Origin: Amphiscolops sp. MND2022
Taxonomy: Eukaryota
Direction: 5' to 3'
Assembly (NCBI GenBank): GCA_964187785.1
Contig: OZ076409.1
Location: 43,836,001-43,900,000, forward strand
Length of the DNA: 64,000 nucleotides
In this document: positions 1-39,487 of the stretch, one piece after another
Layout of the letters: each line of letters begins with the position of its first letter
Position numbering within the stretch: position 1 is the first letter of the stretch
Notes under the pieces: model-generated
Told to the model about the DNA's origin: nothing
What the model saw: only the letters and a program-made list of their open reading frames with translations
Database searches by the model: none
Made by a program: the position numbers and the translations under genes

Positions 1-1320
1 CTCAGGTACTATGTAAAATCCATTACACATTGGATTTTGTCTGAAAATGTTTGTGGTTTTATTACCTATGTTAGAATATTCTCTTTTATTATTACATTCG
101 AAATCACCATAGATCCTGAAATATAGTGGGATCTTATGAAAGTGCTTCTTCCACATTAAATGACTATCCTTGCTAACTCTGATAGCTGTGATATCTTGTT
201 GCTTACATCTTTCAGTATGTTTCACCAAAACGTTTTCATTTGTAAAGCAACTTAGACATCGACGACAAACAAATTTTGAATCCCTTTTTCCTAAGAATAT
301 ATGAAGTTTTTTAATGAGGGCATAGTGATTTTTATATATCACCAAATCAATCACTGTTTCTGAATTGTTCTCACTAACCTCAATAGGAATCAATTTATGT
401 TTCCACTTTTCCCCCTCTTGATAGAACTGTAACTCAAATATATTAATAGCTAGATTATTCATCTTTTCAAATTTAGAAACATCTGATGTTTTAAAAGGGA
501 ATTCCAATCCATCTGTTTTCAATTCTCTAAAATATTCTCGATAGTTTGAAACTCTATTAGGGTGAGAATTCTCACAAGGATGAAGGTGAGCTAAGATGCT
601 CCATAGAAAACAGTACTTATCATTATTTTCAATGTTTAAAATAGCAGCGCTTCTAAGAGGTATTTTAACATAACTGCTACCATTCAGTTCAACAGTTTTA
701 TAAAAGTATATAGTCATCGATGCAATTTTACAGAATCTCCAACCACTATCTTTCATCTCCAGATTTTCAATCAATGCATTTGTTTTTCCTTCTAGATCAT
801 ACTTTTCAATATCATTCCAAGTTAAACTCTGATTGACCTCCAAACTAACATACTGTTCTAACTCATCTCGAGTCTCCTTATCGAAAATAACTGAGAAGAC
901 AACTTGATATTTGAATTTATATTGCTCAATTAACCTAGCATATATTGCTGACATTTCTTTGAAGATATTATTCAGATCGAGCAATTCAATAGGGAGATCA
1001 TATTTAGGTTTGACAGTTATCTTACTATTTAAGTGTTTGGGGTGGTGTTGATCAAGATTAACATCATATTGAGGTTCATATCTTTTAGAGAAGTAGTATG
1101 GATTTATCATATGTTTTGCCAACTCTTTTTCTGAGAGATTGACTTTAGCTCTCGCTAATTGTTTTAGTGTTGGGACCGATCGCGCCCTTCGTTGTATAGG
1201 GTCTCCCGGTACAACGCCAATATTGTGTAAATGAATTTTAGATTTCTCATGTCTCGAGAAAGATGCTGTGTGAATGTGTTTATCACACACTTCACAATAT
1301 TTGGTATTCGTTGTGTTCAT
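1..1320 (-). CDS. Protein-primed DNA polymerase B, N-terminal part (continues past left edge)
   Basis: Manually translated open frame from ATG at 1320: N-terminal CxxC..H..H finger, GSSYVKIP...NIENNDKYCFLWSILAHLHP, VCRRCL, and Exo I-like IYGDFEC. Colinear with PolB of element B. Absent from the ORF track because it has no stop in the window. Confidence 0.92.
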   Translation of the reverse strand, partial: MNTTNTKYCEVCDKHIHTASFSRHEKSKIHLHNIGVVPGDPIQRRARSVPTLKQLARAKVNLSEKELAKHMINPYYFSKRYEPQYDVNLDQHHPKHLNSKITVKPKYDLPIELLDLNNIFKEMSAIYARLIEQYKFKYQVVFSVIFDKETRDELEQYVSLEVNQSLTWNDIEKYDLEGKTNALIENLEMKDSGWRFCKIASMTIYFYKTVELNGSSYVKIPLRSAAILNIENNDKYCFLWSILAHLHPCENSHPNRVSNYREYFRELKTDGLEFPFKTSDVSKFEKMNNLAINIFELQFYQEGEKWKHKLIPIEVSENNSETVIDLVIYKNHYALIKKLHIFLGKRDSKFVCRRCLSCFTNENVLVKHTERCKQQDITAIRVSKDSHLMWKKHFHKIPLYFRIYGDFECNNKREYSNIGNKTTNIFRQNPMCNGFYIVPE

Positions 1321-2676: not shown

Positions 2677-3901
2677 TTATAAAAGATCAAAGTGTCTTTG
2701 TCCGTCACTACTAATACTTATTAACTTGGGTGTTAGTACAAGGGCATAAGCTACATAATCTGCTACACCAAAAGCAGCACTAAATTTAAATTCTAATCTA
2801 ATAGGATGCTATAGGTGGTTTTTGCTTAGATAGGTCAAATACATAAAAATTGTAACTCGTTCGGAATTTGTGCAAACTGATAAACGGATTGAGTAGATTA
2901 GATTCAGAATGTAAGTTATAGAAGTTTTCGATTTCATAATAAGCTTGATCGTATTTGTCGCGGTCGTAGTCACATTCTATTCCATCATCGGGATATTTTT
3001 CTGATCCTATTTTACAAACTGCATTACTAACCGAAAGTCGATCGAATGTTGAGTTGTTATGTGTTTGTGAATCAATTTTATTTCTAGCTTGAAATCCAAC
3101 TATCACGTATGTTGGTGTCGATTCTCCACTGTTGCCTAATTCAAATGTCCAATTATTATTGGTGTTAACATCTTTTCTAAAGACAGTTCGTTCTATATAA
3201 TACAACTCGGTTGGGTCTTTATCTAATATTTGATTAAGGACAAGCTGCTGGTTTTCCATACTGGGTACATAGTGTGGAATGTGCCAAGCAATATCTTTTA
3301 TATCTATTTTTGCAGCATCTACACCGTTGTCCCTGATGATAGGGTCGTTATTATTATTACGTTTTAATGTCAGAGAATAACCCAATCCGTAAGTTATTTT
3401 TTCTTGATCAGCAAATCCAAACAAGTCTTTTAGTTTTATTCTAACAAAAAAGGTTCCTTTTTCTGTTTTGTGGTTTGTTAATTCTAATCGCCTGGTGTTT
3501 TCTGATTCTTCAAATCCGTACATCAATTGACTTGTTTGTTGGTTGCTAGTCAAAAGCTTGTACATTAAACATACTGGGTGTAGGTTATCAACTTTCTCAA
3601 GATGCTTTCCTGATGATGTCACAAGTTTAGCTTCACTAAATAAAGCAACAGGCCCAAAGTTGACCAAGCTTATTTGGTCGTTGTCTACGTAGCGTGTGTT
3701 ATCGTTTTTAAGAACTTCAAATTCTAGACTAATGTATGAGTTTTGTAAACAAATATAAGCATCTTCTCTTGGGAAAATGATGGAAATATTTGAATTATTG
3801 TTGTTGATTGTAGCTAAACTACTAGGCGAGTATTTAATAAAATCAATTTTATGAATTGGATTATCGAGAACATATTTATTTTTCAAAGAAAATAATTCCA
3901 T
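2677..3901 (-). CDS. Double-jelly-roll major capsid protein (PY); frameshift near 2806
   Basis: Polinton MCP-like motifs (LFSEAKL...LEKVD, PTYVIVGFQ, FYVFDLSKQ). The tail PIRLEFKF...ISSDGQRHFDLL* lies in another frame ending at 2677 and matches the element B MCP end. Confidence 0.85.
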
Positions 3902-6639: not shown

Positions 6640-7461
6640 ATGAACAGTTTAAATTGTGGTAATAAAAAAATCTGTAAAGGGTGTAATATTTTTAAATCTG
6701 AAGAAGATTTCTATAAATATAAAAATGGTGATGTATATATTAAGTGTATTAGTTGTTTTAATAGGAAGATGAGGTGTGAATTTTGTAACCGTGAATTCAA
6801 TAAAACATATTTGTCAAAGCATATAAAAAACATTCATAAAACTGATACAAATAATACAATTGAGGCTGATGCATTAAATCGAACATTAATAGTTGGTCCT
6901 TCATTTTGTGGTAAGACTTTTTTGTTATTAAACAAATTACAATTAATTCGCTTGGATAACCCAGAACAACAAATAAAAATCATAACTAGATCTCCGGAAC
7001 AATACGAGAACATACAACTAGAAGACGTTTCAGTGGAAGACGATCTAGAATATAGAACAATACAAGATTTTCAAAATTGTTGTGTTGTATTTGATGATAT
7101 GTTAGACTCGAATCAGAAATTAATAGATCCATTTTTTACTAGGGGAAGACATAATGATTTAGATGTTTATTATTTATCACAGTCATATTTCGATTTGCCT
7201 AAACGCACCATACGCAATAATAGTAATATCATAATTTTATTTCAACAAACATTGAAAGATGTAGAAAATATATACAGAGATATTGCAGGTTTTGATATGT
7301 CTTATGATGAATTTAAAAGTTTGTGCAGGGAGGCATGGAAAGAAAAATACAACTATTTATTAATAAACAGGCTAGAAGATAAAAACGGATGTAAGTATAA
7401 ACTGTGCAATGAATCTAATCCAGAGTATAAAATCTTTAATCCACAAACTGATCCTTTTTAG
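6640..7461 (+). CDS. FtsK/HerA (A32-like) DNA packaging ATPase with N-terminal zinc module
   Basis: Walker A GPSFCGKT, Walker B VVFDD, RGRHN motif, LSQSYF..PKRTIRNN. Confidence 0.93.
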   Translation: MNSLNCGNKKICKGCNIFKSEEDFYKYKNGDVYIKCISCFNRKMRCEFCNREFNKTYLSKHIKNIHKTDTNNTIEADALNRTLIVGPSFCGKTFLLLNKLQLIRLDNPEQQIKIITRSPEQYENIQLEDVSVEDDLEYRTIQDFQNCCVVFDDMLDSNQKLIDPFFTRGRHNDLDVYYLSQSYFDLPKRTIRNNSNIIILFQQTLKDVENIYRDIAGFDMSYDEFKSLCREAWKEKYNYLLINRLEDKNGCKYKLCNESNPEYKIFNPQTDPF

Positions 7462-12700: not shown

Positions 12701-12898
12701 TTTGAAAATCAATATTTACATCTACCTTCTAAACTAATTGGCAGTCTGGAAGAATTTCGTTTGAAAATCAATATTTACATCTACCTTCTCAACTAATTAG
12801 CAGTCTGAAAGAATTTCTTTTGAAAATCAATATTTACATCTACCTTCTCAACTAATTAGCAGTCTGAAAAAATTTCTTTTGAAAATCAATATTTACAT
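12701..12898. repeat. 59-bp tandem repeat x3.4
   Basis: TTTGAAAATCAATATTTACAT at 12701, 12760, 12819 and 12878. Confidence 0.93.
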
Positions 12899-13029
12899 TT
12901 ACAGAGTGAAATTCATAGAAATTTAGCAGTTCAAAAGAATTTCAGCTTTATTCTAAAACATGGTTAGTAGAGTATTACCAAAGTAGTGTAAGAAATCGTA
13001 TTTAACGATAGGTGTAAGGATGGTAAAGA

Positions 13030-13163
13030 AGTAGTGTATATAATCGTATTTGACGTTAGCGCGAAGTAGCCATGAGCGAAGCGAATGGCGAAGCAAGGGG
13101 GCGAACGAAGTGAGCCAGCTTGCGCCCTTCGCGCTGGCGTCAAATACGATTATATACACTACT
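13030..13163. repeat. Terminal fold-back hairpin of Maverick A right TIR
   Basis: AGTAGTGTATATAATCGTATTTGACG (13030-13055) and its exact reverse complement (13138-13163). Confidence 0.95.
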
Positions 13164-16017: not shown

Positions 16018-16123
16018 GTTCCATTACTCCTTTTCCACAAGCTTTTGCTAAGCTCTCATATGAGTAATTGCAATTACTCATATGAGAGCTTAGCAAAAGC
16101 TTGTGGAAAAGGAGTAATGGAAC
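16018..16123. repeat. 106-bp perfect spacerless palindrome
   Basis: Checked base by base; centre at 16070/16071. Confidence 0.98.
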
Positions 16124-21620: not shown

Positions 21621-22525
21621 GAAGTTACAAACTTATAGAATAGGTCAAGGGAAACTTTGAGTTCGCTTGTCTGTAAAAAACTCCGTAATAGTGCATTATT
21701 TTCGAACCTCCTCCTCAATGGAAGGCAGCATTTTTCGAATATACAGTCAAAGTTTCAGATATAGAGTTCTGGGTCACCTCCCCTCCAACTTCGACCTCCA
21801 CCTTGGTGAAACGCAATTGAAATTCTGTATGTAGGGTCAAAGTTTGGATATAGCGCAATAATTCCGCTCCTCACCTCCTCTTTAAGAAAACGCAACTGGT
21901 TTCGTTTATAGCGTCAATAACATTAAAAGGTTCCTCAAAAACGGTAAATGAGGATTACGTTATATCGGTCAGTGTAGTCTTGGATAGACTCGCATAATCA
22001 ATTTTTCCTGGGCTACCATTGGGAAAGGCCTTAGAAATGCCACCTCTGTGATACGCAAAAATGTTTCTACAAGTCGCCCGCTAACCACCCCTTCTATTTT
22101 CCAGCAAAAACGCTACTCGATGGTCAAGAGTAGCCATTGCACGATGAAAACGCATAGAAAATTATTGAAAAAAGTTTGACACTCTCGATAAATGTCATAC
22201 CATTTTAGAAACAAACACTCCGAGAAAACACTAAACACCTTTTTGTATTGTTGTCGCCTTGTGTGGATACCGAAATCAAACCGACCATTTATTTATAACT
22301 TCGCACGAATACTCACTGAAAACCTCGAAAAGTTTCAGAAAACTTTGATTTTTTTTACAACTTTGCGGTCTTTGAGACATTTTTCTAAGAAACTGCAGAT
22401 GCCATTTTAAAAACGGCTGCTTCTGAATACCGGGTTCAGTTGTTGTTGAATTACGAAAATGCTTGAAAAGTCTACAAAATTTTTCAATTTTAGGAAATTT
22501 TTCGATTTTCCGGTTATCTGAAGTC

Positions 22526-22759
22526 AGTAGTAGGGAAAGGGGGATTTGACGCCAACGCAAGGACGCATGGCGCCTCGCCTCATCGTTCACGCTCCCTCTT
22601 CGGCTTCGACCCCATGCTTCGCCATTCGCTTCGCTCATGGCGACCTTGCGCTAACGTCAAATCCCCCTTTCCCTACTACTTAGGCATAACACTAAACTCA
22701 AGGGCACTCCCACACTCACCCTCACATCACTCACAACATTCTCACGCTAACGTCAAATC
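22526..22759 (+). repeat. Left TIR of Maverick B with internal hairpin (22526..22680)
   Basis: Reverse complement of 39253..39487 with scattered mismatches; 26-bp perfect internal inverted repeat. Confidence 0.95.
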
Positions 22760-22813
22760 GCATAAAAAATTGTTCATCCATTTTAAAGTAAACTAACTAC
22801 ACTAAAATAAAAA

Positions 22814-25800
22814 TTACATCCAAGGAATACTTTCAGTGTTACGTTTTTCGTCAAATGCAGATAAAGAATTCTTAGTCACCTTTTGAAGAAACATATCATA
22901 TTTTCAACAATTTCGTAGTCACCTTTTGAAGAAACATATCATGATTTATAGATTTGATTACAAAATTTTCACACTCTTTTCTATAATCGCCCTCAAACAA
23001 GCATTTGTGATACTCTTCAAACGTAATATTCTTACTCTGAGATTTTGAGATACCTTTCAATTTAATTTCATTTTTACACCCACATTTATAAGAATACGAT
23101 CTACTTCTCAAACAAACAAATTCATCTATCTTAACAATCTCAAAAGTTTCAATTTTAAATTTACCAAGTACCTTTTTATTTACTTCACCAAATAATGTGT
23201 GCTCTCTGCTTAAATTGCTGAAATCAAAGTAATCTCTCAGAATATATAAAACCATAACGATACCTTTCGTGTTAACACTCAAGACAAAACTGTCCGTGTT
23301 GTGAACGATTAACGGATACCCACAAATGAAGTCATGAGATTCTGTTTCTAAGTCATAGACATAATCACTCTTCCTACCTCAATTTACTGCTTTTTGTACT
23401 TTCTCATCACTCATCTTATTACCAATAATTAGTATGAAAACATTGAATTTATCATCTTGCATAGCAATTGCAGTACTTAATCCCTAAGACTGACAGAGAT
23501 AATTCAAACCAGACATTGTAACTTTATTCTTTTGAGACAACGATATATTTTTCTCTTCTCCTTTCGATTCCCATCAGCTACATAGAACCCGATCTGGTAC
23601 CACTTTCTAGTCTCAAGTAATTCATTCAAGATGTAGGATGGAATTCTTTTCTCCTTCTCCTTCGTAAAAAATTCTTCAAACTCTAAAGCCATATTCTTCT
23701 TACCTGAAGCAATTCTACAAACATGATTCGATTCTCTAATATCATAACTTTAAAATATCTCTTTCCAGACTTCATCGGCGTATCGCTTTAACTTCTCAAT
23801 TATTCTAAAATCTAGATTCTTCAAAGTGCAGCAATTCTTCAAACCTGAACTGTAGTTGTATAATCCAGAAGTTCCATCTCCTAAAAAGAATCCTTTAACA
23901 GACATCACTTTCTCTTATAAAGCAGTAGCTTCTGTGTTGTAAAGTTTATCAATAATCTCATCAAACATCACACAAGACTCTCTAAACTCAAAATAATTAT
24001 GCAACAACTCTTCTTCTAAAATCAAATCAATAGGCTTAACCACTTCTCTGTTCTTGTTGAGTAGACTATGATCTTCAGTTACATCAACGATGTTTTGTTC
24101 TAATTCTGAAGATATCTTTCTCAGTCTTATGTCTCATAACCTTCTTGATTTCCCTCCAACCCTCACTGGTCCACACTTGAAGATCCTTAACATCACTGAA
24201 TTTCTTATCGTTTCCCCAAGGAGTTGTAACACTATCGTCTTTATACCAATTTTCATCTCTAACAATCGCATCAATTCTTAAAGTTTTCACATTCCCATTC
24301 TCCATTCTCCTCTAAATTAAAGTTGTATCTCCTGTCACACTATCCATATAGTGGCAAGGTAAATTTTCTTCTCCAAAACATGGCTAAAATATATCATAAT
24401 ACGTTTCATACTTGAACAGCTTGCCCAGTTCCAATACCGAAAATCCAAGACATATTGGTTTGTCCATTAGCACCTCATTCTCTTTAAATGTAAAACTATC
24501 ATTATTCTCATAAGTTTTATGAATCCCACTAAACCCATCTTCTCTTCTTCTTCCTTTTTAATGAACTCGATCTTACTCCTAATTTGCACATTCTCCATTG
24601 ACTTTCCATAAACCGCATTGTTTAATAGTTTGTAAAAATCTTCTTCGAAATCGTTTTTTTTATTTCGTTTCTGAGTATTGAAATTGATATTAATTTTTGA
24701 CCATTTACTCTGTTTAAAAGAATTTACTTCATGAACTTCTTTCAACAGTCATACCCTGTCTCACATAAAACTTCTACATTCTATAATGAACTTGAATCAG
24801 TTACTTCTTCTTATCCGTCTAATCACATATTATCTTCTTACATTTGGTGTGACTCCCCTGCTTCAATTTTTTCATATAGTCAGTAAACTTATCTTGAGGT
24901 GAAAACTTATTCTCTGGACAGAATGGAGAGTTCTTAGCATTCTTTTTTATCTCATCAGGATATTCCAGATCATAGTTTCAGATTCAAGGAAAAACCAACT
25001 TTTCTATCATCTGAAGTGTTCAAAATATCTTCTAAATTAACATTATCAACAAGTTTAATTTCATCATATGGCAAATTCTGACTCATCGCCCATCCATACA
25101 AATTATATACCCACTCAGTATATTTCAAACCACATTCCCAAGTATACCCTGAAAGACTCAGATGATGGAGGGGGTTGACTATAAATTCATTTAATGATAC
25201 CTTTATGAACTTCTCAAACACATCTGCTACTAAATTTACATCAGTTTTCAAATACAACTCAGTCAACTCCTTTCCAGTTTTAATCTTAAAAGTATGAAAG
25301 ATCTCATTTGTCCTTTGAATTTCACCATCCTGAGGTTGTCCATTTTTCAATCTTTTGAAGTAATCTTCTTTTGTAAGATTTGTAATCGGTAAGTTGTAAC
25401 CATCATATGATTTAAAGTATTCATAGGGATATGCTAACTTCTTACTTAAGAACTCACAGTTATTAGAAAAGTCTTTCTTCAAAATAGTCAGCTCATCAAC
25501 TGTTTTAACCAAATCATCTAAACTATTTTGTAGAAATCTATACGAATCTATAAATCTATTACCTCCATATGAAATTGAGATATATTTTTCATTCGTTCTA
25601 GGTATCACATGAAGGGGAATGTTTTCTGGCTTCTTATCAATCAGTGTTATAAAGAACAAGTGACAATCAAAGTTACTGAAATTGTGAAACATAAACGGTA
25701 TGAAAATACTTTGTTCTGTCTCAGATTTATATTGCACACCTCAAATGCAGCTCTCCGATACCTACCATAAAAATGGCAGTGATCTCTGACAGCTCTCCCT

Positions 25801-27339
25801 CCTAAAGGAAGTTCACAAAACCAACAGACTGTACTGTTCTTGAAATCCTCCTCATCTTCTTGACTCGTTACATTATTTTTCTTTGTATTCTTAAAATAGA
25901 AATTCATATTATTCTCGATCTTTATGACTTCATTACCAAACCTTTCAAAATTAATCTCACCAAGACTACTCTGATATCCAGACTGTAGAACATCAATCAA
26001 CTCAGATACTATGTAAAATCTATTACACTTTGGGTTTTGTCTAAAAACAATTTTAGTTTTGTTACCCATTTGCTGCAACTCAGCAATGGTGTTGTCACAT
26101 TCGAAATCACCATATATCCTGATATATAGTGGAATCTTATGAAAGTATTTCTTTTACGTCAAATGACTTTCCTTACTAAGTCTGATAGCTGTGAAATCTT
26201 GCTGTCTACATCTCTCAATATGTTTAACCAGAACATCCTCATTCTTAAAGCAAGTTGGCCATCTACGACAAACGAATTTAGCGTTCTTACTTTCTAAGAA
26301 TACATGTAGTTTCTTAATCATTGCATAATGATTTTTATAAATCAATAAATCAGTGACTGTTTGCGAAATGTTCTCACTAACCTCGATAGGGATCAGTTTA
26401 TGTTTTCAGTTTATCCCCTCTTGATAGAACTGTAACTCAAATATATTGATAGCTAGATTATTCATCCTTCGAAATTGGTGACATCTAAAGTCTTGGAGGG
26501 GAATTCTAACCCATCTAATTAATTTCACCAAAATATCCCCGATAGTTTGAAACTGTTTGGGTGACAGTTCTCAGAAGGGTGAAGGTGAGCTAAGATGCTC
26601 CATAAAAAACAATAGTTATCATCATTTTCAATATTCAAAATAGCAGAACTTCCAAGAGGTATTTTAACATAGCTGCTACCGTCTAGTTCATCAATTTTAT
26701 AGAAGTAGATCGTCATCGATACAATTTTGTAGAACCTCCATCCACTATCTTTCATCTCGAGATTTTCAATCTTCGCACCCGTCTCTTTCTCGACATCATA
26801 CTTCTCAACATCACTCCATGTCAAATTCTGAGTAACCTGTAAACGTATGAATTGTTCTGTCTCTTCTGAAGTCCTTTATCAAAGATGGTGAAATACACAA
26901 CTTGATGTTTGAATTTAAACTGTTTTAGCAATCTTTCAGGGATCTTAGCCATCTCTCTGAAAATATTATTCAGATCGAACAATTCAATGGGAAGGTTATA
27001 TTTAGATTTGATGGTTATCTTGCTATTTAAGTGGTTGGGATGGTGTCGATCAACGTTAACCTCATATTGATGTTCATACCTTCGACTGAAGTAATATGGA
27101 TTTAACATGTGCTCACCAACCTCTTTATTAGAGAGATTGACTTTTGCTCTCGCTAACTTTCTCAATGTTGGCACAGTTCGAGCTTGTTGTGCCCTTTGTC
27201 GTATCGGTTCTTCGAACAAATTTGGAGAAATTAAGAGTGCGTTCGCCTCATGGAGCTTAGATTTGAGATGCTTCGCGAACGATGATCTGTGTATCTGTTT
27301 ATTACAAACGTCACAATGCTTATATTGTGCGTCTTCCAA
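22814..27339 (-). pseudogene. Protein-primed PolB with endonuclease VII-like (DHCH) insert and intein
   Basis: Fragments: N-terminal zinc finger, IYGDFEC, CWFC...VRDHCH, FHNFSNFDCH, FIDSYRF, KLAYPYEY, KTDV, NLYGWAMSQ, KLLNNAVYGK, YMD/TDSF, LGKFKIE, KGISK; many stops and frameshifts. Confidence 0.93.
23298..24341 (-). mobile_element. Intein with LAGLIDADG homing endonuclease in PolB motif C (decayed)
   Basis: Block A SVTGDT after YMD; block B VDVTEDHSL; GFFLGDG (~23873-23893) and GFYVADG (~23571-23591); blocks F/G YVYDLETESHDFICGYPLIVHN followed by extein TDSF. Confidence 0.93.
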
Positions 27340-27418
27340 TTATTATAAAAGGATTTATTCAAATGATTGATTTCAATTAAAGAAACCTAAGCAAATGAGT
27401 TATTGCATTGAGGATTTG

Positions 27419-28075
27419 ATGAATAATGACCTAGTTAAAATCTGTTCCAAATGTGGAATCGTACAACTGAAAATGAATTTTAATAAAAATAGGAGTTGTA
27501 AATGTGGTTTGAGTAGATGGTGTAAAAGCTGTTGTAAAATTTATAACAGAATGTAGTATCAAGAAAACCATTAACATATAAAAAGACATAACGATGAAAA
27601 TCGTGAAAGACATTGTGAAAATATGAAGAGATATCATCAAACAAATCGTGAAAATATGAAGAGATGTTATCAAAAAACTCGAGATCACAGGCGTGAATAT
27701 GAGCATAATATAAGCTAACAGACTCAATCTATAAATTAACAACTAACTTAAGAGCTAGAACAGTTCAAGCATTCAAAGCTCAAAATGTATGTAAGAATAG
27801 TAAAACAGTGGTTATATTAGGTTGTTTTCATTCCTTCTTGAAACATTGGATCGAATTTCAACTTTATGGTGAAATTTGGCATATCAGTCATTGTGTTCCT
27901 ATATTAATAGGAATTCCCAATAATCATAATTTATTCAATGAAGATGAGGTGAGAAAGTGTTTTAATTGGAAGAACCTAAGACCGATGTATTCGAACGATA
28001 ACTCAGAAAAGAGTAATACAATTATATCAGATTCTATTTGTTACAGGAGATTAAAACTATGTATTTCTTAAAGAT
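27419..28075 (+). pseudogene. HNH endonuclease 1 (giant-virus type)
   Basis: ICSKC...WCKSC, LGC...LKHWIEFQ, WHISHCVP, CFNWKNLRPM..DN..K. Confidence 0.8.
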
Positions 28076-28103
28076 CTGGATATAAAACTTTTAACTTCAA
28101 TAT

Positions 28104-29030
28104 TCAAATTTTAATTTTAACTGTAATTTCAACTTTATCTATTTTTTTAATCTTTCTGAATTCTGAAATATAATCTTCGTCTTTGCTTGCGGATTCAGAA
28201 TCTGAAGTTTCTGAATCATCGATGAACTCCTCATCTGAGTTATGTAAAGTTTCATCTTCAGAAATCTCACTCTCTGAATAGATTGTTTCACTGCCGCTCA
28301 TTTATATACAAGAAGAGTTCTTTTGTTATGCATAACCTTTCTTCTTTCATGAAAGTAAGAGCAGTACCAATCAAATCATAGTGATTCACATTCTCATAGT
28401 ATCTAGCCGAGACCAGCCACTTCATCGTTCTCAGGGCATAGTTTCCAGCTTTGTGAATTCCTTCCGTTTCTCTCACAAGGGCATTTGTTTCAGAATCATC
28501 AGGCGTATCATCAAACTTTTTGAGGATTTCTTCTATAACATTTAATTTCTTCTGTGTAAGATATGTTAAGACAGCTGCAAGAACGTCTATTTCATTGGTT
28601 TGAACTGTCAATTTAATCTCCTCTCGGCAGATAGCTATTATTTAGGGGGTTGCATATGTCAATCTTCCTTCAAAATTGACAATCTTCTATCTTTGGGTTT
28701 TTGTCAATTGATTCTTTGTTTTTATAACATTAAATTCACAGACTAAACAAGTGAATTCATACTCATACTCAAAATAGAGCATTCCTATTACATCTCCTAC
28801 ACAAGGTAGGGCTACCAGCAACATCTTCCTCCACTATTTCGTTAGAATTCGAAGAGATCCATGATCAAGCTCGATTACATTCATCTTTTTCTCTAGTTTA
28901 ACACCATTCATAACTTCATCTTTTGTTTTCAATGACTTTGGAGGGGATTTTTCTCTCAAAACATTTCCTCACTGATAATGTATTTTGGATTGTTGACTTC
29001 AATGTAAAGTTTATTAGTTATGTACTTCAT
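28104..29030 (-). pseudogene. Cluster of three small genes homologous to element A 1690..2585 (acidic protein, zinc-ribbon protein, 65-aa protein)
   Basis: Alignable at nucleotide level with element A, in the same order. Confidence 0.85.
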
Positions 29031-29034
29031 TTAT

Positions 29035-29898
29035 TATATATTATTTACTTGAATTAAAATTTCAATTTTTTAATTACAGTTTCATTTTCATCTAATGTTA
29101 ATTTACTCTTCTTCAAAAAAACTTCGTTATAGCGTTCAAGTAAAAAATCAATATGATAACCGGTATGATATTGTCAATAATTTCAGTAATTGTGTAGAGT
29201 TTATAGCTCCAGTTTGTTGAATCTTCCTCAGAGAAAATACTTCTCTTTTTCTGCTGTTCTAACAAAGTCTCCTATTTCGTATTTTGGTTTTCGTTTGTTT
29301 CTTTTGTCCCGTAGAATATTATATATTTCCTCTTTTTTTGAAGCATCTATTGGAGTCATTTTTTTGAATGTTGAATGGTGTTATAATTTTTCTTTATAAC
29401 TAATGGAAGTTCATCTAACCAATTACAATTACTTTTCTCAAAAACAGGTTTTTTCAAAAAATTTCTAATTGTTCTATTAAACCTTTCAGCAAAAACTGTT
29501 CCTTTATCGGTATAACGATTATTTTTTTTATTATCATTAACTTTTAGAAAATCATTAAAGGTTCTATTATCGAATTCTTTGCCATCATCTGTTTCTATTA
29601 ACTTTGGTTTTCTCTTTGATTTGTTTATAATGTTGGAAACTTCATCAGTTATCGTTTGAGCGAATTTATTTTTCAATGTAACTACCCATCCAAATTTACT
29701 AAATTTGTCTATAACTACTAAGAGGTATCGATAACCTTTGTTGTTTTTAGATCCATAATCAACAATGTCTAGTAGGTCCATACTCGAAGTATCATCATTG
29801 TGTTTCACTATTATTGTTTTGTTTGTGAGATAGTACTTTTTAGGTGGATTAGCATAGATTTCATGGATAAAAATGTCAATCAGAGATTGTCTCACCAT
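29035..29898 (-). pseudogene. rve integrase
   Basis: SMDLLD, ETDDGKEF, AERFNRT; frameshifted C-terminal part (KPKYEIGDFVRT). Confidence 0.9.
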
Positions 29899-30640
29899 TT
29901 AACTTTTCGAAACAATTTGCTTTAGTCTCTCTAGTAGATATAACCAAAGATCTATTTTGGCTCCTTTTGACAGATTTTCTTTAGATCGCCGTGGTCTCAG
30001 TTTAATCCATCAAAAACAACTTTTGAGTTCAGCTTCATTGAACAGGTTAAAGGAAGATATAGGAAGACAATGGTAGATGTACCATACTCCACCATAATTT
30101 TCAATTGTCATCTCATCGAAAAGCTGAAATTCAATCCATCGCTTAAGAAACTGTTGAGAACAACCTGACAATTCAAATGTTTTGTTATCCCTTTTCACAT
30201 TCTGTTCTTTAAAGGCTTCTCTTGTTCTGTTTTGCAAGCTACAAACCAATTTAAATAAAGGATCAGTTTTTCTTCTACGATAAAACTCTCTGTATTATTC
30301 ACATTTATGGTAATTAATACAATCTTTACAATTTCTTCTAACACCTAATTCAGTATCTTTTCTTCTAGTGAAACATTCAATTTTTTTTACAATTTCACAA
30401 AATCTATCTTTTAATTCTTTTAATTGAAAAACCCACTCATACTTTTCTGGTTTTTGTTTCTTTAACTGTTTCTCTCTTTCATAGGTACAAGTTTTTACAA
30501 GCGTTTTCGTAACGGTTATTGTCTTTTCTAATACTGAAGTTAGAGATTACACCAACAACTCCACACTTACTACACTTCTTGACTAGATTATAATCGAATA
30601 AATCCCTAATCGAAAAACTCTTTTACTTGATTTCATTCAT
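29899..30640 (-). pseudogene. HNH endonuclease 2
   Basis: Two CxxC modules, TDPLFKL, GCSQQFLKRWIEFQ, ENYGGVWYIYHCLPISSFNL, CF.W..LRP...ENLSKG. Confidence 0.82.
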
Positions 30641-30659
30641 CGTCGTGGATGTAAAAATA

Positions 30660-31235
30660 GACCTTAACCTGATGTGAGTGTTCCAATCTTAACAGCTCCT
30701 CATTCCCACTAACAAATCAACCAGCTTGCATAGCAGAAGATAACATTGCTTGAGGATTTCTAGAGCTCACACTCGCTCCAAATTGAGAAGCAACTTTGAA
30801 AGCTCTCATGGGATCGTGTAATTTTGTTACCATTATCCTTACCTAAAGGCTTCAAACCTTTCTCCCTAACATTCTTATAAAATCTCTTGATACTATCGCC
30901 CTCGAGATTACGTTGTTACGTAGTATAAGGTAAAGACTTTTTCCATAGCACGAATGACAATACCCTCGCGGAGGAATAGATTTCCAGATCCTGTCTAATG
31001 ACCATAGGGTCTATCAGATTTTTCATTCCTTCCACATTTGCATTTGGAATTAGCTAAAAAACTAGTACAACGGTTCATTTTTATGAAAGAAATTGACTTT
31101 CAATCCTTCCACATGTTTCACAGATACCTTTATCGAATATAACGATTTTTCCTGTTTTAGAATTGATTTTCAAAGACCTAGTTGAGTTTTCTGTTTCACA
31201 ATGATGTCTTCCGGCTTTACAGAAACTTTTCATTC
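30660..31235 (-). pseudogene. Homologue of core-like protein 8372..8773
   Basis: GRHHCET...KTGK...GICETC and DPMRAFKVASQFGASVSSRNPQAM. Confidence 0.65.
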
Positions 31236-31239
31236 ATTA

Positions 31240-31983
31240 CTAACAAAAACGTTCCTCATAAGTAGGTGGAGCTGAAGGTTCAAAATTGTTTCCATTTTCT
31301 TTGAAGATGAAATTAAATTTAATTTTTATATTTACTTCAATTTTGCAAAAAAAGGCATTGAACGTTTGTATCTGTTCTGCATATATGTTCTCTACAAGAT
31401 CTAGATTACCAAAAATATCCTGGACTGTAAATTTGGTGCTATCCATGATTTCTTTTCTCTCAGTTATGTAATGGTTATAGATACTTTTCACTTCTTCACT
31501 TTCCTTTTCATCAATCTTTTTATCCACCAGAGACTTCTCGAGAGTTTTCTCATATAGAAGTTTAATCATCCTAATGTGATCTCTCGGGTTCCGATAACGT
31601 GATTTCAATCTTGAGAAATATTCATTGGTGAAGAGAACAACCACCGATATCACAAAGCCGGATACTCCCGCTATCGGTACACCAATCTGCGTTCCTACAC
31701 CAGTACTGGCAAGGTACTCCCGACAACTACTCCACTCGCTCCCGCTAAAATTTTTGGGATCGAGATATAGATTTTCTTTTTATTTACAGATTTATATTTC
31801 TTTTTGTAGAATTCGTTATCGATTTCAAGACTTTTGAGAATATTTGCGTCGTCATGGTTTTCTGCTTTTTATTTCAAATCTTTAATTTCACCATCTTTAG
31901 TTTTTACTTTTCATATAGTGGTGTGGACAAGTTCTTGATTTTGAAGGTTGTATGAAGAGGTCTTTATTGTCTACAAATTCCAT
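31240..31983 (-). pseudogene. Hydrophobic-hairpin membrane protein homologous to 3960..4496
   Basis: STGVGTQIGVPIAGVSGFVISVV...KSLVDKKIDEKE. Confidence 0.7.
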
Positions 31984-32280
31984 AGCCTAAAAATCTTTTA
32001 ATGATTTTTGTCTATGAACTTTCTGTAGAGCAATGTCTTTGATTATTCTATAAAATAAACTGTGAGACAAATTGTCTTTTATCTCACTTTCTGTATATCC
32101 AGACTGTTTGAATATACCTTCATCAGTTAAACCTAGATTCCTCCTCATTTCTCTGTTCTTCATAAAACTCATCATTTGTCTTAGTCAATGATTCAATTTA
32201 TCTTTTCTGCAACGATTTCACATGACTTCTCCCTAACCCACATTCTTCAACTAGATTGGGATCTGATAGAAGACAGGTGG

Positions 32281-33715
32281 CTAGGACAATTTTCTTAACA
32301 TCTTTAATTGAAATTATCTGTTCCTCCAACCAATTCATTTATCTAGGAAAATTGTACGATATAATAATGTTAGAGAAAACCATATCAGATTCAATATTAA
32401 AATTTTCATCAAAATAAAATCTTATCCTTTTATCATCTTCTGAAGTCGTTTCTTCCAATAAATCCCAACCATCACTTTGTTCTTTGGCAGGTAAAGTAAC
32501 TTTATCTTTTCATTGATCATCCAGTGTTTGATATTGTAGTCTAAATCGACACATATTGATACCATATGTATGATACCAAAGTTTGACCTTTATAATGTTT
32601 TGATGTTTAGCATATGTAATATGAGCATATCTATTGACACCATTATTTGGAGTAAATGCTTCAATGAAAGCTTGGTGGTTACCAATTGGGGGTAGAGTTT
32701 CGGGTCCCATTCCCGTTGAGGCGGTATTAGAATCAGAAGCTTTGAAAAATCCAGCAAAAGAGGTCATTCCAATAGCAAGTTCTAGATCACAGTCTAAATA
32801 TAAATCTGTTCCAGTATTGTTTGTGAATTCCAGTATCATTTGAAGTACATCATATACAAAATTATCAACATATTGTTTTGTAGCAAGTGGAAAAGATAAT
32901 TTTCCACTCGTTGTTTTGATGATTAAGGGAACGATATTGGATGTGTCTGATACCAGACTATCCTGTTTCAATCCACTATCAACATACTTCTTGTTTACTA
33001 CATCACTATCATTTATGGGGTAATCCACATTTGTATTTATATGGTTATTAAATCATTACCTCTATCTGTTCAATCTAAATTTGTATTTAAAGGGATTTAG
33101 AAAATAGTTTTAGGGGTAGTCAAATTACTTTCTAATGTAATATAGTCTTTTCCATCAAGATTTAGTTTTTCATCTTGATGTAATCTCAAAAGAGAAAACT
33201 CATCATTACTTGTTGTTACAAATTCACTAACAACAGATTTGGGTACTATGTTATCAATTTCATAGTCATTAAAAATTGTTTAGTAGGATCTATGTTAAGA
33301 GAAAACACAGGGTTTACTTTATTGATTTTAACGAAAGAACTTTCATCTATTAAAGTATCAGTATATTGTTTAGTTGATAATTCTAAATCATATTTCAGAT
33401 CTCTATCCACGTAAACACTTTCGCAAACCAAAATTGTTTTACCAATAAAATTATTCTTTTTATTTGCTCTCACAGTTGTTGTATTGTCAAATTCACTATT
33501 GGGGACTGAGTCAAGTGTTTTGCTGTCTACATAGTGTTTTGTAGCAGGATCTTGAATAACTGTTGGATTTGGAAGATTTATTATTTTAAACTGATTTTCA
33601 TATCAATAACTTCCTCAAGGTTTCATTCGCAGTAGTTAGCTCGGATGTATGTTTTGGTTACTCCAGAAGCACTCGCTGAGGTGCTAGAAATCGATCTTCC
33701 GAATTTATCTGTCAT
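32281..33715 (-). pseudogene. Fibre/spike-like protein with repeated (A/V)xKxYVD motifs
   Basis: MTDKFGR start; PATKHYVD, STKQYTD, VNKKYVD and ATKQYVD repeats; beta-rich C-terminal domain. Confidence 0.65.
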
Positions 33716-34124
33716 TTATTATCTTCATAATTGTTCTATAAAAACTATTGTCTTGCATGAGAAATAAGAAGAAGAGGCAGTAACTCGCACAGTTAGCATC
33801 GTTTATGTTCTGTATCGAGTTCGATGAGATGTAGCGTTCGCAGAAGTTTTGGGGATGACGTTCTGCAAGCTGGTTTGAGATTATTCTTGGAGGCTCTGCA
33901 GAAGCTATCGAAGTATATTTTTTTTGGAAAGCGATCCAGTGGGTACCATTTTTATAATCATCTGTTAAGTTTATACCTCCTTGATTAGAAGTTAATTTAT
34001 CTGTTCGTAGATAGATATTAAAATCTTTTAGACCTAATTTATTGGCGACTTCTAATATCTTAGCGCTCGATGTCGATTCTTTTTTTAAATTGTGTCTTTT
34101 CATGAAGTTGTTTAAAGTACTCAT
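33705..34124 (-). pseudogene. Adenain-like protease
   Basis: GTHWIAF and IQNINDANCASYC; the Asp motif region is locally frameshifted. Confidence 0.85.
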
Positions 34125-34350
34125 TTACATTCCGGAAAAAGAGGGGGGTTTTCCTTCTTCTTTTCGTGACTGTGTTTTTTTTGGTTTTGTGATCTCCGAC
34201 AATCACAATTCACATATCGGCAGTTTGTACAAATCTCTTTTTCAAAGGAGCTCATATCCATTTAATAGGTTGACTTCTCGAGCTTTTCTGAAAGGATATT
34301 CATCAATTCATTTACCAAGATAGCATGTTGTTCATTCATGTTTATTTGAA

Positions 34351-35626
34351 TTAGACGAGATCGAAGTGCCTTGCACCATCACTTGAAACGCTGATAATTT
34401 TCTGAGTTAAAACTAGAGTTACAGCTTGATAGTTGTTGGCAACAACATCAACACCAGCTCTTAATTCAAAATTCACTCTTATTGGCTGAGCAGCTGGGTT
34501 ATCTCTCTGAGCTCTGAGATCTAATACATAAAGATTAAACAGCTCTTTAAAATCTTATGTAGGGACTAACTTCTCCCTTGATGTAATCTTTGTAAAACCT
34601 TCGAACTTCGTTGTAAACCTCATTATTTTTATTTCTCTGATAATCAATCTGAAATTCATGATCGGGGTATCTCACACACCCGACAATGCAAGTAGCTTCA
34701 ATGACATCTAGTCGGTCAAAGATTGCGTTATACTGATCTTGATCTGGTCCAGTTCTCGCAGCTGATTGAAATCCAACGATAACAAATATAGGTACGTCAC
34801 TACTACTCTCAACACCAATCTCCATCATCCAATTGTTGTTCGAGTTCACAGGTTTATAGCTAATCATCCTTGAAACATATGAATGCTCAGTATTCTTCTT
34901 AGCGAGAATGTGCTAAGATATTGTCGAAAGAGATATTGTCAAACGATGGCGTGTCAAGTCTCACGTACCAGACGATATCTTTACTTTCAAGTTTGGGTAC
35001 ATCACCAATTGTTCGATATATGCTGTTCCCGCTGTCAGCTCGCTTCATTCTGAGGGTAAAACCTAAACCAAAGTTTCATTTATCCAGATGTCTTATCAAT
35101 CCAAACACATCTTTCAGATAAACTCTGGTGAAGATCGTTCCTTTTTCGTCGTTATCATTAAGCATTCTGTTTTTTTTGATACTATCGATTGCGCATGGGG
35201 TTTCCCTTTTATAGATTATCATCGTATCTTCTTCATTATCAGATAAAACTTCATACATTAGGCTACCAAAATAGACATGATCGACGCGGTCTCTAGTTTT
35301 TTCGAACCAAATGACGAAAAACTCATTTCTCTGAATGAACTTTTCCCGAACAAATTGTTTGGATGAATAGCATCATTATCAGCGTATAACGTATCATTTG
35401 CATTTTCAACTATATGAGTTTCAATTTCTAGATATGAATCTCTTAGATCAGCAAAGACATCTTCTCGTGGTATTAGAATGTTGAAGGGACTCTTTCCATT
35501 TACTGCTACTAGAGATGTTGGGCGATATGGGTCATAATCTGATTTAAGTTTTGTTCCATCAATGACTTCAGGTCTATCAAGTTGGTAGTAGGATGATTGT
35601 GTTATCTCTTCAAATCCGTTCTCTAT
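34351..35626 (-). pseudogene. Major capsid protein
   Basis: IPREDVFADL, YLKDVFG, PIFVIVGFQ, AQPIRV...SSDGARHFDLV*. Confidence 0.88.
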
Positions 35627-35738
35627 TTATGAATTAGAATAAGGTGATTTATTTTTGTAGATCACCGAGAACCCCATTCCAGTTAATCTTCTTAGCTTCT
35701 CATAATTTTACCTGGTTGATTTAGTTTCATTTTCTATC

Positions 35739-36512
35739 TTACGCAAAGGAGTGTTTTGAGTTTTAGAACTTGGGTTGAGAATTACCATCGTCATCCTCCA
35801 TCCAGAACTCTATAGAATCAAGTTTTTGTTTGAATGTATGTTTATAGAGAACGAGGTTGGGTTCTCGAACAACTTTAGCTCCTGGCGGTTCATTTAGAAC
35901 TACGGAGAACAAAATGTTTGAGGGGTATCCGCTTCGCAGAGAACCAATAATACAGTCACACCAAAGGTGAAGTCGGTGTAAGTCGATTATGTTGACCTTA
36001 TTATTAGAGTAAACATATGATTCGGTTAGTATTATAGAAACAAATCCTTAAAGGTCTCTCAAAGTACCAGGTTGAGAAAAATCGATATTAAATCCAAATT
36101 CAAGGTGTATGAAAGAGTGAAAGGTGGCAGTGTTGTTTTCAAGTACTATAGGATTAACACTTAAAGATTTGGCTTCAACTTGAAGTTGTCTAGAGATCTC
36201 ATCATTATTCTATTCAATTCCATAGGCCCCACGAAGAAGGACGAGTACCTTCCAATAAAGTAGCCACTCAAAGACTATGATTTTATTGTTTTTAGATGTT
36301 ATAGTAAAAATAGAGATGTATGTGTTAAAATATGAGACACCAATTACGTAAGTGCCATCTGTTAGATCAATGCTATCTTGAAGGTCGATCTTAATGTGAT
36401 TTGTTTCATATTTAACTTCTAAAGGTATTTGAGGTAGAGGGCGACTATTTTTTTCCATTTCAGTCAATATCTTTTCCCTTTACTCAATAAAAATCTTCAT
36501 TACTTTTTTCAT
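35739..36512 (-). pseudogene. Minor capsid protein/penton
   Basis: HLWCDCIIGS, PPGAKVVREPNLVLYK. Confidence 0.8.
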
Positions 36513-37330
36513 ATTCAATTTCTGTAGTCTGTTTCATTCTTTAAAGTTCTTGTAGTACGCCTGAAGCTTCACGAAATGCGTTTGATTTACCTGTCAGTGA
36601 TTCTCCTACGAGGACTTCAAATCGTTCATCTAAAACATTTGAAACTGAAGATAGTAAAATGAAGTTCGTACCATCTCCATCAGTTTCTTGAATGTTAGAT
36701 TGTCTGAAGGATTTAAGGATCTTGTATAAGTTAGATCGCCTATCTCGTTCTAAACCACCTGCATAATCAACGAAAAAGTAGAGCGCATCATATTCTTGAT
36801 GGGTGAAATTACTTGAATATAATGTATCACCTTTATGGAATATTTTAAAGAAACTTGGTGATATCCTAAATTCCTTATCATATTTTATTCTGTCATAGTA
36901 AACTTCGAATGGTTTATCATTGATTTTATAGTTATTAAAATCTTTTTTAATAAACTTCGTCTGTTTGTGGGTGTTAGTTTGATTCAAGAGGGAGGATATT
37001 ATGTCAAAAATCTCACCAATAATTACTTTCGGTTGAAGATTATCTTTATGCTCCAATGCTTCTCATGTTGGAGATTTTTTTGCAGGTGTAGTGATTTCTT
37101 CTAACATTTTTGTTTGGTCTTTGATGGCTCTCGTTTGGTCTGCTTGACCTTTTTTGGTAACTTCAGTTTGATTTTCTTGAAGTTTCAAGATTGGTGCATA
37201 TTCTTCTGCTAGATCATAGTTAAGGGTTGCTTTTGAATCTTTCTGTTCAGTCTTTGTTTTTTGATCCCTTTTCTTCGATTGATGAGTCTTTTCAATTTAT
37301 CAAGTTCTTCTATATTCTTTGGTGTGTAGA
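36480..37330 (-). pseudogene. Homologue of conserved Polinton protein 7436..8356
   Basis: YDLAEEYAPI and ILLSS.SNVLDERFEVLVGE...G.SN. Confidence 0.65.
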
Positions 37331-37339
37331 ACCTAATTT

Positions 37340-37885
37340 AAAAAACCTAAAATATTCATACTCATAAAGTTTTTCATTTTGGATGGTTAAATAGTGCTCA
37401 AGGTAATTTGCACCCTTCTTACGATTATCATGTTTTAAAAGGGGTTGGATACTCGAAAAACGAGTAGCTTCTTTATATTGATTGGGATCTGTTAGATCGA
37501 ATGATGATAGAGATCAAACGTGGTCGAGATCTATTTTCTTCCAAATCATATCGGGACTCATTAGATATTTTAAGTAGTTTTTGCATTCTTCGAACGAAAT
37601 TCCCAGTAACTCTTCAGTTTTGGAATTCTTTTTAATTACTTGTTTTAGTACTGCTTGATATAATCGTGAGCACAAAGTACATGCTATTCTAAAAGTTTCA
37701 TCTTCGGCTCTTCTTCTCTTCTGGTTACGATTGCATTTTTCGCGATTGTTTTTCAACCATTGGGATGCTTGGAAAGAATTGCATCTCTTGCAAAGAGAGT
37801 GAAGATTATCCTTTGACCTTGAGTTCTTGTTGAAGTCAGTAGAATATTTTTAAACTTCACACTTTGAGCACTTTTTCAAATCCAT
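37340..37885 (-). pseudogene. HNH endonuclease 3
   Basis: KKCSKC...LCKRC, KTEELLG, IDLDHV.SLSSFDL, IQPLLKHDNRKKG. Confidence 0.82.
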
Positions 37886-37914
37886 ATTTATTATAAAATG
37901 ATAATTTCAATAAA

Positions 37915-38645
37915 ATGGATCGCTAGAAGGTAGAAAGAAAACGAAGATTTTGGCGGTACTTGCCATCATCTTTTTTTCGTCAAATCAATGGTTATGAAGT
38001 TGAAGTCTTCGCTCCATACAATGTTGCAAAAATCTTTGAATTCCTTTATTAGCATATCAGTTGATGTTAATTGACGATGTATGCTTTCGACGTTTGCAAA
38101 ATTATTTGTGATGAAGTGATGGATGATTGTAGAGTTTTCTCGAATAGTATCTTTGGGATGTTCGTAGAAGCCATGAGTGATGACGAAGGTTGAAAGGTTA
38201 TTGTATTTTGAATAACATCTGTACTCTTTCATCGTTTAACTGTGGCTTCTTCAAGTCGTCGAGTATAATTACGTTGTGAAGATCTGGACCGTAATCTTGA
38301 GCGTTTTTCAATTCGTTATTGTCTTCATAACTTTCACATTCTATTTGTTATGATTCGAAGTCTTCATCAATAATAAATTCTTTTATTGTTCTGTCTAATT
38401 CATCAAGAGGTATGCCTTCTCTGAGAATATTTTGTATGACATTCAAAGGAAGAAATTTGTTGAAGCACCCAATTATCGTTCTGTAAACTGGTTCATGAAT
38501 CGTTGAAAAAATAAATGAAAATCTAATCAAAGTTTTTGATGATGTTGAGGAGAATCTTGAAAAAAGAATTGATTTTCCCACTTGCTGATTAACCTGAGAT
38601 AATACAGCGCACAGGAGGTTCAAGGTAGAGATATTTTTCCATCAT
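37915..38645 (-). pseudogene. Packaging ATPase
   Basis: RCIISG.SASGK (Walker A), IILDDL (Walker B), PKDTIRENS. Confidence 0.85.
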
Positions 38646-38652
38646 TTATGTT

Positions 38653-38991
38653 TTAGAAATGTGTGGTGGTCTCGTTGGTTGTATCTGTTGTTGTTGTAGA
38701 TGTTTCATTGGGTGTACCTGTTGTTGTAGCTGTTGTTGTAGATGTTTCATAAGGTGTACCTATTGTTGAAGCTGTTGTTGTAGAGGTTTCATTGGATGAT
38801 TGTGTTGTTGTAAATGTTTCGTTAGTTGTACCTGTTGTTGTAGATGTTTCATTAGGTGAAAGTGTTGTTGTAAATGTTTCGTTAGGTGTACCTGTTGTTG
38901 TAGATGTTTCATTTAATGTATTAGTTAGAAATATAAAGATAATTGGTGAGAACATTGTCAAGATTAAGATATTAAAAATGAAAAACGCCAA
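38653..38991 (-). CDS. Signal-anchored Thr-rich mucin-like protein with NET repeats
   Basis: Hydrophobic N-terminus followed by ~30-bp repeats (NETSTTTGTP); start codon uncertain. Confidence 0.6.
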   Translation of the reverse strand: MAFFIFNILILTMFSPIIFIFLTNTLNETSTTTGTPNETFTTTLSPNETSTTTGTTNETFTTTQSSNETSTTTASTIGTPYETSTTTATTTGTPNETSTTTTDTTNETTTHF

Positions 38992-39252
38992 CAGAAATTG
39001 TATTAAAAGGGGGTGTTCGTTTCAAACTTTTTCGTTTTTATAGATTAAAATGTTTATTTTATGTTTGACTAGAAAGGATATGTTCATTTAGTTTTTCCTC
39101 AATCTCATCTCCCTTTGCTTTTGTTCTTTGAAGGTTTGCAATTGAAACAATTTTTTATAAAAGTCTGTGATTGGTTTGTTTATTTTGCAGGTTGTGCAAG
39201 ATTTTGTTTAAATATTTAAAAGAAATAGTTTTTTGCTCAATTAATTGTTGGG

Positions 39253-39487
39253 GATTTGACGTTAGCGCGAGAATGTTGTGAGTGATGTGAGGGTGAGCGA
39301 GGGAGTGCCCTTGAGTTTGGTGTTAAGCTTAAGTAGTAGGGAAAGGGGGATTTGACGTTAGCTCGAGGTCGCCATGAGCGAAGCGGATTTCGAAGCATGG
39401 GGTTGAAGCCGAAGAGGGAGCGTGAACGATGAGGCGAGGCGCCATGCGTCCTTGCGTCTGGCGTCAAATCCCCCTTTCCCTACTACT
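39253..39487 (-). repeat. Right TIR of Maverick B with internal hairpin (39332..39487)
   Basis: Inverted copy of 22526..22759. Confidence 0.95.

Follow-up and report, generated by a model that had tools for sequence, protein, structure and literature searches.

Predicted strand-specific Y-shaped fold-backs at the ends of two Maverick/Polinton elements

Two Maverick/Polinton elements, designated A and B, were found within a 64-kb window of eukaryotic DNA, the window being the whole stretch that was analysed. The terminal unit of these elements folded in silico into a Y, with a 37-bp stem and two arms ("ears"); RNA parameters drew the same Y. The non-canonical pairs of the Y were suited to the strand that carries the tip at its 3' end. 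We favour, with moderate confidence at best, a reading of the Y as a local stand-in for the panhandle, serving both as an origin and as a template for end repair.

Elements A and B and their terminal repeats

The left limit of A lay beyond position 1 and its right tip at position 13163, so only its right end was inside the window, whereas both ends of B were present; three of the four ends, from two families, were thus checked. Element A had long open frames. The main features were as follows.

1..1320, minus strand: N-terminal 440 aa of the A pPolB, with a zinc finger; continues beyond the window edge
2798..3901, minus strand: A capsid ORF, 367 aa
5211..6062, minus strand: A rve integrase (PF00665, E 1e-12)
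6640..7461, plus strand: probable A packaging ATPase, with a Walker A-like GPSFCGKT; tblastn matches in Polinton-like viral contigs
22520..22525, plus strand: left copy of the B TSD, GAAGTC (6 bp)
22526..39487, no strand assigned: element B, a decayed Maverick of 16,962 bp with fragmented genes
39488..39493, plus strand: right copy of the B TSD, GAAGTC (6 bp)

The gene set of A included the rve integrase and a double jelly-roll capsid. An rve integrase was also detected in B (PF00665, E 5e-10), and a Pfam scan of the window identified the Maverick/Polinton hallmark PF21738 (E 2e-17) and an LHFPL-like flanking ORF, which makes an animal host probable. The polymerase genes of A and B were 78.6% identical. 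Both elements had (AGT)2 tips (AGTAGT…ACTACT in B), and the TIRs of B were about 234 bp long and 94% identical. Described Mavericks/Polintons likewise have (AGT)2//(ACT)2 ends, a 6-bp TSD, TIRs, rve, pPolB, a double jelly-roll capsid and a length of about 17 kb (PMC8097293). With rve integrase, pPolB, PF21738 and (AGT)2 ends present, and TIRs and the 6-bp TSD seen in B, A and B are ordinary Mavericks bearing an unusual end structure.

Among 120 listed homologues of the A integrase, 59 (the window's own copy included) were 96-100% identical to it. The candidate ATPase ORF and the ORF at 10124-10537 (maturation protease test) had no matching Pfam call, and both gave tblastn matches to Polinton-like viral contigs. 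The capsid cluster 99% identical to the A capsid ORF was 409 aa long, against 367 aa in A, so this copy of A is probably broken there.

Several other repeats and short ORFs were observed in the window. A tandem array of about ten 51-bp units lay between the integrase and the ATPase of A (6016-6693), and three 103-bp and three 59-bp units lay near its right end (12134-12442 and 12697-12902). A near-perfect, loopless 56-bp palindrome was located between A and B (16015-16126), with a perfect 53-bp portion at 16018-16123. A 1.35-kb element at 41527-42873 had 145-bp TIRs that were 91% complementary. Three related short ORFs of B (27709-28071, 30010-30294 and 37514-37849) resembled HNH endonuclease remnants by eye; a Pfam HNH match was obtained for one of the three only and was weak (E 0.03).

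The arms of the terminal units and their further copies were located as follows.

12982..13020, plus strand: A third copy, a degenerate direct duplicate of the inner arm, 48 nt further in
13030..13066, plus strand: A inner arm, 37 nt, with TT at positions 27-28
13127..13163, plus strand: A outer arm and right tip (…ACTACT-3'), with GG opposite the inner TT
22526..22680, minus strand: B left fold-back unit, 155 nt (arms 22526-22551 and 22655-22680, 26/26 complementary)
22745..22759, minus strand: incomplete third copy of B at the left, inner portion of the arm only, at the inner TIR boundary
39250..39271, plus strand: incomplete third copy of B at the right, inner portion of the arm only
39332..39487, plus strand: B right fold-back unit, 156 nt (arms 39332-39357 and 39462-39487, 26/26 intact)

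The initial annotation had reported that the first 26 bp of each tip recur in inverted orientation inside it. This held for all three ends, where the repeat was perfect and the units measured 134-156 bp; in A, positions 13030-13055 and 13138-13163 were complementary at 26/26. The stem also continued past the TT/GG mispairs, as had been noted, and in A it reached 37 bp. The outer arm read GACG-CC and the inner arm GACG-TT in 3/3 ends, which gives a G·T wobble on the 3'-end strand. In each of the three ends the stem was flush with the last base of the element, that is, with the element-host junction. The fold-back had the same orientation in all three (flip/flop check, n=3, a sample in which a mixture could have been missed).

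The chance of such an inverted copy within 300 nt was about 1e-13 to 1e-14. Perfect inverted repeats of at least 16 bp with arms less than 400 nt apart were limited, in the 64 kb, to the end units and one unrelated palindrome. DNA folding gave z scores of -12.0, -11.9 and -7.0, and none of 200 shuffles per end was equally stable. The loop motif said to be shared was confirmed as a 15-nt sequence, exact in all three ends and absent elsewhere in the window; TTTGACG was present three times per TIR. The CpG observed/expected ratio was 1.7 and 1.2 in the units, against 0.64-0.69 inside the elements.

Degenerate third copies of the arm had also been proposed. They exist, but they are unlike each other and those of B have no AGTAGT. 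In A, 12982-13007 was 22/26 identical to the arm, AGTAGT included; the left third copy of B had 16 substitutions relative to the inner arm and ear, of which 8 were C>T. These unpaired copies have decayed.

The Y fold and its strand bias

The two ears of the A unit lay between its arms.

13067..13091, plus strand: ear 1, with a 5-bp stem, tandem GA/GA, 2 bp and a GAA triloop; GCGAAGC inside; common to B
13093..13123, plus strand: ear 2, with a 5-bp stem, a GG/AG loop, 3 bp, tandem GA/GA, 2 bp and a GAA triloop

In B, ear 1 of the left end was found at 22643-22619 on the minus strand, which is again the strand with the tip at its 3' end. Two ear-1 pairs were broken at the right end of B, as is expected in a dead element after selection stops. 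The ear motif occurred three times in the 64 kb when both strands were searched, always inside the units and always on the 3'-end strand. Among 200,000 shuffles of the A loop, one ear was recovered in 28 and two ears in none. Stable DNA motifs include GNA triloops as well as sheared G·A pairs that stand in tandem within pyrimidine-GA-purine steps (PMC10085684), and GCGAAGC is a DNA mini-hairpin according to the title of Hirao 1994, cited in the same paper.

On the 3'-end strand of A, all 11 non-Watson-Crick oppositions were G·A (8), G·T (2) or G·G (1); ten came from the fold listing, and the eleventh was the G·A closing the GAA loop of ear 1. On the opposite strand of the unit the same 11 positions became C·A, C·T or C·C. 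The 3'-end strand folded more stably than the other strand at the three ends, by 3.1, 5.9 and 5.7 kcal/mol. The restriction of G·A, G·T and G·G to the 3'-end strand points to a selected, strand-specific single-stranded DNA end structure. The earlier suggestion of a selected or homogenised terminal structure acting as ssDNA is thereby supported; the strand bias and the GAA mini-loops argue for it more strongly than compensation in the stem does.

Symmetry of the arms, replication proteins and occurrence elsewhere

Alignment of A with B showed identity at 6/6 positions of the tip, 15/15 of positions 19-33 and 31/32 of positions 40-71. The central 12 nt had been described as different between families with perfect stems in each: positions 7-18 matched at 3/12, and all nine differences were mirrored on the partner arm. 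To call the stems fully compensated between families goes further than this, since the nine mirrored changes come from two families and form one contiguous block, and may therefore stem from a single copying event, or from a few, instead of nine compensations. Block 7-18 is about as different as random sequence yet symmetric, which suggests that one arm was copied from the other, and stepwise compensation would slow change in a stem. The nine changes are thus better explained by arm-to-arm copying, which cannot extend over positions 27-28, where the TT/GG mismatch has been kept.

Outside the terminal arms, the base stem of ear 2 contained one compensated pair between A and B (A-T/T-A), which arm copying cannot explain. 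Comparison of the two B ends showed differences at 0/52 arm sites and 13/182 sites elsewhere (one-sided Fisher p = 0.035; two-sided, 0.078), which hints weakly at some homogenisation that may go on in the chromosome. A covariation shuffle test gave 0/500 on three sequences, two of them from one element, and was not counted as evidence.

The window fragment of the A pPolB alone gave no Pfam call, while PF03175 is present in full-length proteins that match it at 99% and 98% identity. In the model of its N-terminus (pLDDT 72, pTM 0.45), Ser192-Gly lay between helix two and the final strand of an alpha/beta domain; the next domain held Cys237 and His332 and is a probable vOTU. This topology matches that of the terminal-protein and vOTU domains of pPolB described in PMC11071308. 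Fold matches of the N-terminus in the PDB were weak (Y-family polymerases, E 0.004 or worse), and those to viral proteins were strong (adintovirus, MELD and mavirus proteins, E 2e-23 to 4e-5). From the model, family A probably keeps a terminal-protein domain. No Pfam family of HUH nickases (NS1/Rep) was found in the ORFs scanned (18 + 14 proteins, with the left part of A outside the window and B fragmented). With a probable terminal-protein domain in pPolB and no HUH nickase found, the element appears to be protein-primed yet parvovirus-like at its ends.

Inserted domains were also observed in the polymerases. The B polymerase (22896-23749, minus strand) contained what remains of an intein, its HN end lying immediately ahead of the TDS motif. 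The family A polymerase cluster (1537 aa, 136 members) had Intein_splicing, Hom_end and LAGLIDADG matches; P0394 had no intein. Homing-endonuclease insertions in polinton pPolBs are mentioned in PMC11071308. An endonuclease VII-like domain was observed inside pPolB in P0388, P0394, P0444 and P0479, and in the window at 25650-26153. It was above the Pfam cut-off in P0444 only, the family pPolB matches being sub-threshold (E 0.002 and 0.0004); this domain is a possible cutter of branched DNA.

Searches for the structure elsewhere were mostly negative. In viral contigs, the integrase query gave no relatives among 5 candidate stretches, the three end patterns gave 0 matches each, and a distant capsid alignment gave 0/45; two broader capsid alignments had no usable conserved stretch. 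Bacterial genomes gave 0/32 in one scan and 0 matches in another. Polymerase and integrase motifs pulled out 44 viral loci (28 + 4 + 12), three of them with recognisable ends. In the first motif scan, pPolB was present at 28-36% identity in 23/28 loci, most of which had no ends.

The only AGT-repeat start was found in a distant Polinton-like contig (L004, 1-160), with an imperfect and earless inverted copy of the tip at about 137-158. Its inverted-copy score was 26 against a control maximum of 24 (284 stretches), in a test chosen after L004 had been seen. Two complete-looking Polinton-like contigs with TIRs (L017 and L046) had no terminal fold-back, although their tips may be trimmed. The lack of a fold-back in these two and the weak one in L004 indicate that the structure is not universal among Polinton-like elements.

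A metagenome scan gave 5 matches, none of which was a Maverick. Loci L029, L030 and L032 held GC-rich, probably bacterial palindromic repeats with the same GAGCGAAGCGA ear, which we take to resemble REP-type repeats. In L031 (9783-10332) and L033 (9793-10345), a palindrome of about 550 bp lay inside an element with 41-bp inverted ends; its loop held a multi-GA ear with a GAA tip, and no Maverick genes were present within 10 kb. The presence of the GA-GC-GAA-GC-GA ear in unrelated repeats marks it as a recurrent hairpin motif.

Related systems and interpretation of the ends

The available text of PMC8097293 describes no fold-back inside the Maverick/Polinton TIR, and the standard model pairs distant TIRs. 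Nothing on such ends appears in the accessible parts of PMC11296320, PMC12220804, PMC6061790 and bioRxiv 10.1101/697771. The literature covered, apart from the founding Polinton/Maverick papers, Repbase and most subscription papers, contained no branched, strand-specific ends for animal Mavericks; among the papers listed for the ear string, none was on mobile-element ends, judged by title. The Y-shaped fold-back end thus seems to be undescribed for Mavericks.

A close description among relatives is that of terminal palindromes beside the TSD in the TIRs of Halocafeteria seosinensis virophages and PLVs (bioRxiv 10.64898/2026.07.28.741278). These, too, adjoin the TSD of integrase-bearing elements, and hairpin priming was proposed for them; however, they are near-perfect, have gaps no longer than 10 nt, or 52 nt in one subtype, and, in the text available, mostly belong to non-pPolB elements. 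The A and B ends, with a branched, strand-specific loop of 60-82 nt and a pPolB, fall outside this type. Palindromes are sometimes contained in casposon TIRs (PMC4046053), and for bidnavirus ITRs it is stated that no hairpins form (PMC4061559).

Among working systems, the nearest analogue is the typical Streptomyces telomere, a 3' single strand in which the tip pairs with an inner palindrome across two sheared-G·A hairpins, with priming by a terminal protein and the ability of the fold-back to self-prime in vitro (PMC4513846). In silico, the A and B ends show the same pairing of terminal sequence and inner palindrome across G·A-closed hairpins; this likeness is structural. Unlike A and B, Streptomyces replicons are linear bacterial molecules patched by Tap/Tpg after internal initiation, without integrase or capsid (PMC4513846).

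In the modelled fold the unit is a Y-shaped 3' fold-back with a flush 3'-OH, as in a parvovirus-type telomere. The 3' (left-end) rabbit-ear hairpin of autonomous parvoviruses such as MVM is also a Y fold-back, with a conserved stem mismatch, and is reported in one orientation only (PMC1185569, PMC4513846). In contrast to A and B, parvoviruses self-prime and resolve their ends with the HUH nickase NS1 (same sources), whereas the A/B type has the same Y at each end of an integrating dsDNA element of 17 kb. Adenovirus and PRD1 share with the proposed scheme a protein-primed strand displacement and a regenerated duplex end for re-initiation or homology repair; their ITR panhandle joins the two genome ends (PMC11886824), whereas here each end pairs with itself over 134-156 nt.

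In the preferred reading, the element would become single-stranded during protein-primed, strand-displacement replication, and the last 134-156 nt at the 3' end of each strand would then fold into the Y ("rabbit-ear"). The fold would rebuild the duplex of the terminal 26-37 bp from one end alone, replacing the long-range TIR panhandle locally. It would also shield the free 3' end and offer the terminal protein and pPolB an origin at …ACTACT-3', and the G·A/GAA ears may nucleate folding or bind a protein. If the folded 3' end were trimmed and re-extended on the inner arm, the inner arm would be copied onto the outer arm; such copying would let the unconstrained block 7-18 drift between families yet stay symmetric, and the TT/GG wobble would mark its limit. 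We infer that the structure forms in vivo, is used as an origin and directs end repair.

In Streptomyces, a terminal protein is documented to prime on a 3' overhang with G·A rabbit ears (PMC4513846). The panhandles of adenovirus and PRD1 have been invoked for re-initiation and restoration of homology, with direct evidence described as lacking in the available text of PMC11886824. Against the preferred reading, a flush 3'-OH on a template is an ideal self-primer too, so terminal-protein priming is not singled out, and the 234-bp TIRs could form an ordinary panhandle anyway. In addition, the feature is seen in two families and three ends and is not general, and the PDB fold matches are weak.

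The folded 3' end might instead be extended directly, as in parvoviruses, by a U-turn in which the nascent strand switches template at the last arm; we consider this unlikely, though it is the main rival. Duplex intermediates capped by Y-hairpins would result, and through them the element could leave the chromosome as a copy, with no excision; the integrase would cut after ACTACT and link that 3'-OH to target DNA, leaving host repair to restore the TIR from the strand that is not folded. Such a U-turn accounts for the templating of exactly the distal 26 nt, for a stem flush with the integrase end, for the tuning of the 3'-end strand and for the single orientation in 3/3 integrated ends. The Streptomyces telomere provides a precedent for fold-back extension in vitro (Form x; PMC4513846), and the hairpin priming proposed for the Halocafeteria palindromes (bioRxiv 10.64898/2026.07.28.741278) provides another, although those palindromes mostly accompany non-pPolB elements. 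The arms of the MVM junction are made unequal by the stem mismatch (PMC1185569), as TT versus CC would make them here, and the sub-threshold endonuclease VII-like domain of pPolB is a candidate junction cutter. However, no HUH/Rep nickase was present among the ORFs scanned, the (AGT)2 tip, which is typical of protein priming, is retained along with the probable terminal-protein domain, and no intermediate has been observed.

Carried further, these Mavericks would pass through parvovirus-like Y-hairpin intermediates both to replicate and to leave the chromosome, with no HUH nickase: a nascent-strand U-turn at the far end would copy out the element, and the capped end would be opened at ACTACT by the retroviral-type integrase as it integrates. 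This extended scheme is speculative and rather doubtful. If true, a single replicon would combine DDE integration with both protein priming and hairpin priming, and the "racket" model would be replaced for the clade.

A third reading, which appears quite improbable, is that of a ssDNA excision substrate. Each end would fold at the host fork and present the integrase with a duplex tip at the host junction, so that local folds would replace the 17-kb racket of the standard Polinton model. The stem does stop exactly at the element-host junction in 3/3 ends, and integron attC sites are strand-selective folded substrates of this kind. The standard model itself requires a single-stranded intermediate (PMC4196379). 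However, excision on one strand needs both a 5' and a 3' unit, and only the 3' unit is optimised; nor does this reading alone explain the symmetric drift of block 7-18.

There is little probability that the ends are a functionless by-product, in which an ancestral snap-back or template switch duplicated the tip and quasi-palindrome correction kept it symmetric. The third copies reveal a tip that is readily duplicated, and the contrast between arm sites and other sites in B is a weak hint of homogenisation without selection; but correction should erase the TT/GG mismatch, which was kept in 3/3 ends, and neutrality gives no reason for two GA/GA-GAA ears on one strand or for 31/32 identity in the loop.

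Least probable are a nested MITE, paired dsDNA protein-binding sites or an RNA hairpin: the AGTAGT…ACTACT ends, the MITE-like size, the three TTTGACG copies per TIR and a stable RNA fold (z -13.5) speak for them, but dsDNA binding needs no G·A/G·T strand bias, GCGAAGC is a DNA mini-hairpin by the title of Hirao 1994 (cited in PMC10085684), no Rfam family came near threshold (best 29 bits versus 200), and no unit had its own TSD. At the unit flanks, TAAAGA stood against GATTCC in A, and the inner flanks TAGGCA and AGCTTA stood against the TSD GAAGTC in B; as a TSD was present around 0/3 units and no solo copy in the window, the MITE-sized inserted unit suggested by the initial annotation is largely refuted there. 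As to its "second inward origin", the inner AGTAGT points towards the element end, so that a start there would copy only the 134-155-nt unit.

In the available text of PMC4196379 and bioRxiv 10.64898/2026.07.28.741278, the exit of Polintons/Mavericks from the chromosome and the start of their replication have never been observed, and the standing model is a racket of distant TIRs. As a 134-nt object, a strand-specific Y at each 3' end is open to direct probing, and reading the end as a Y leads to distinct predictions about the ends of free DNA, the ratio of flip to flop and the substrates of the integrase. As family A is young and abundant, judged by its integrase homologues, these predictions can be checked in one assembly. 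The ends described here would add another independent instance to the G·A rabbit-ear ends of parvoviruses and Streptomyces, and the Y fold hints at how Mavericks copy their ends.
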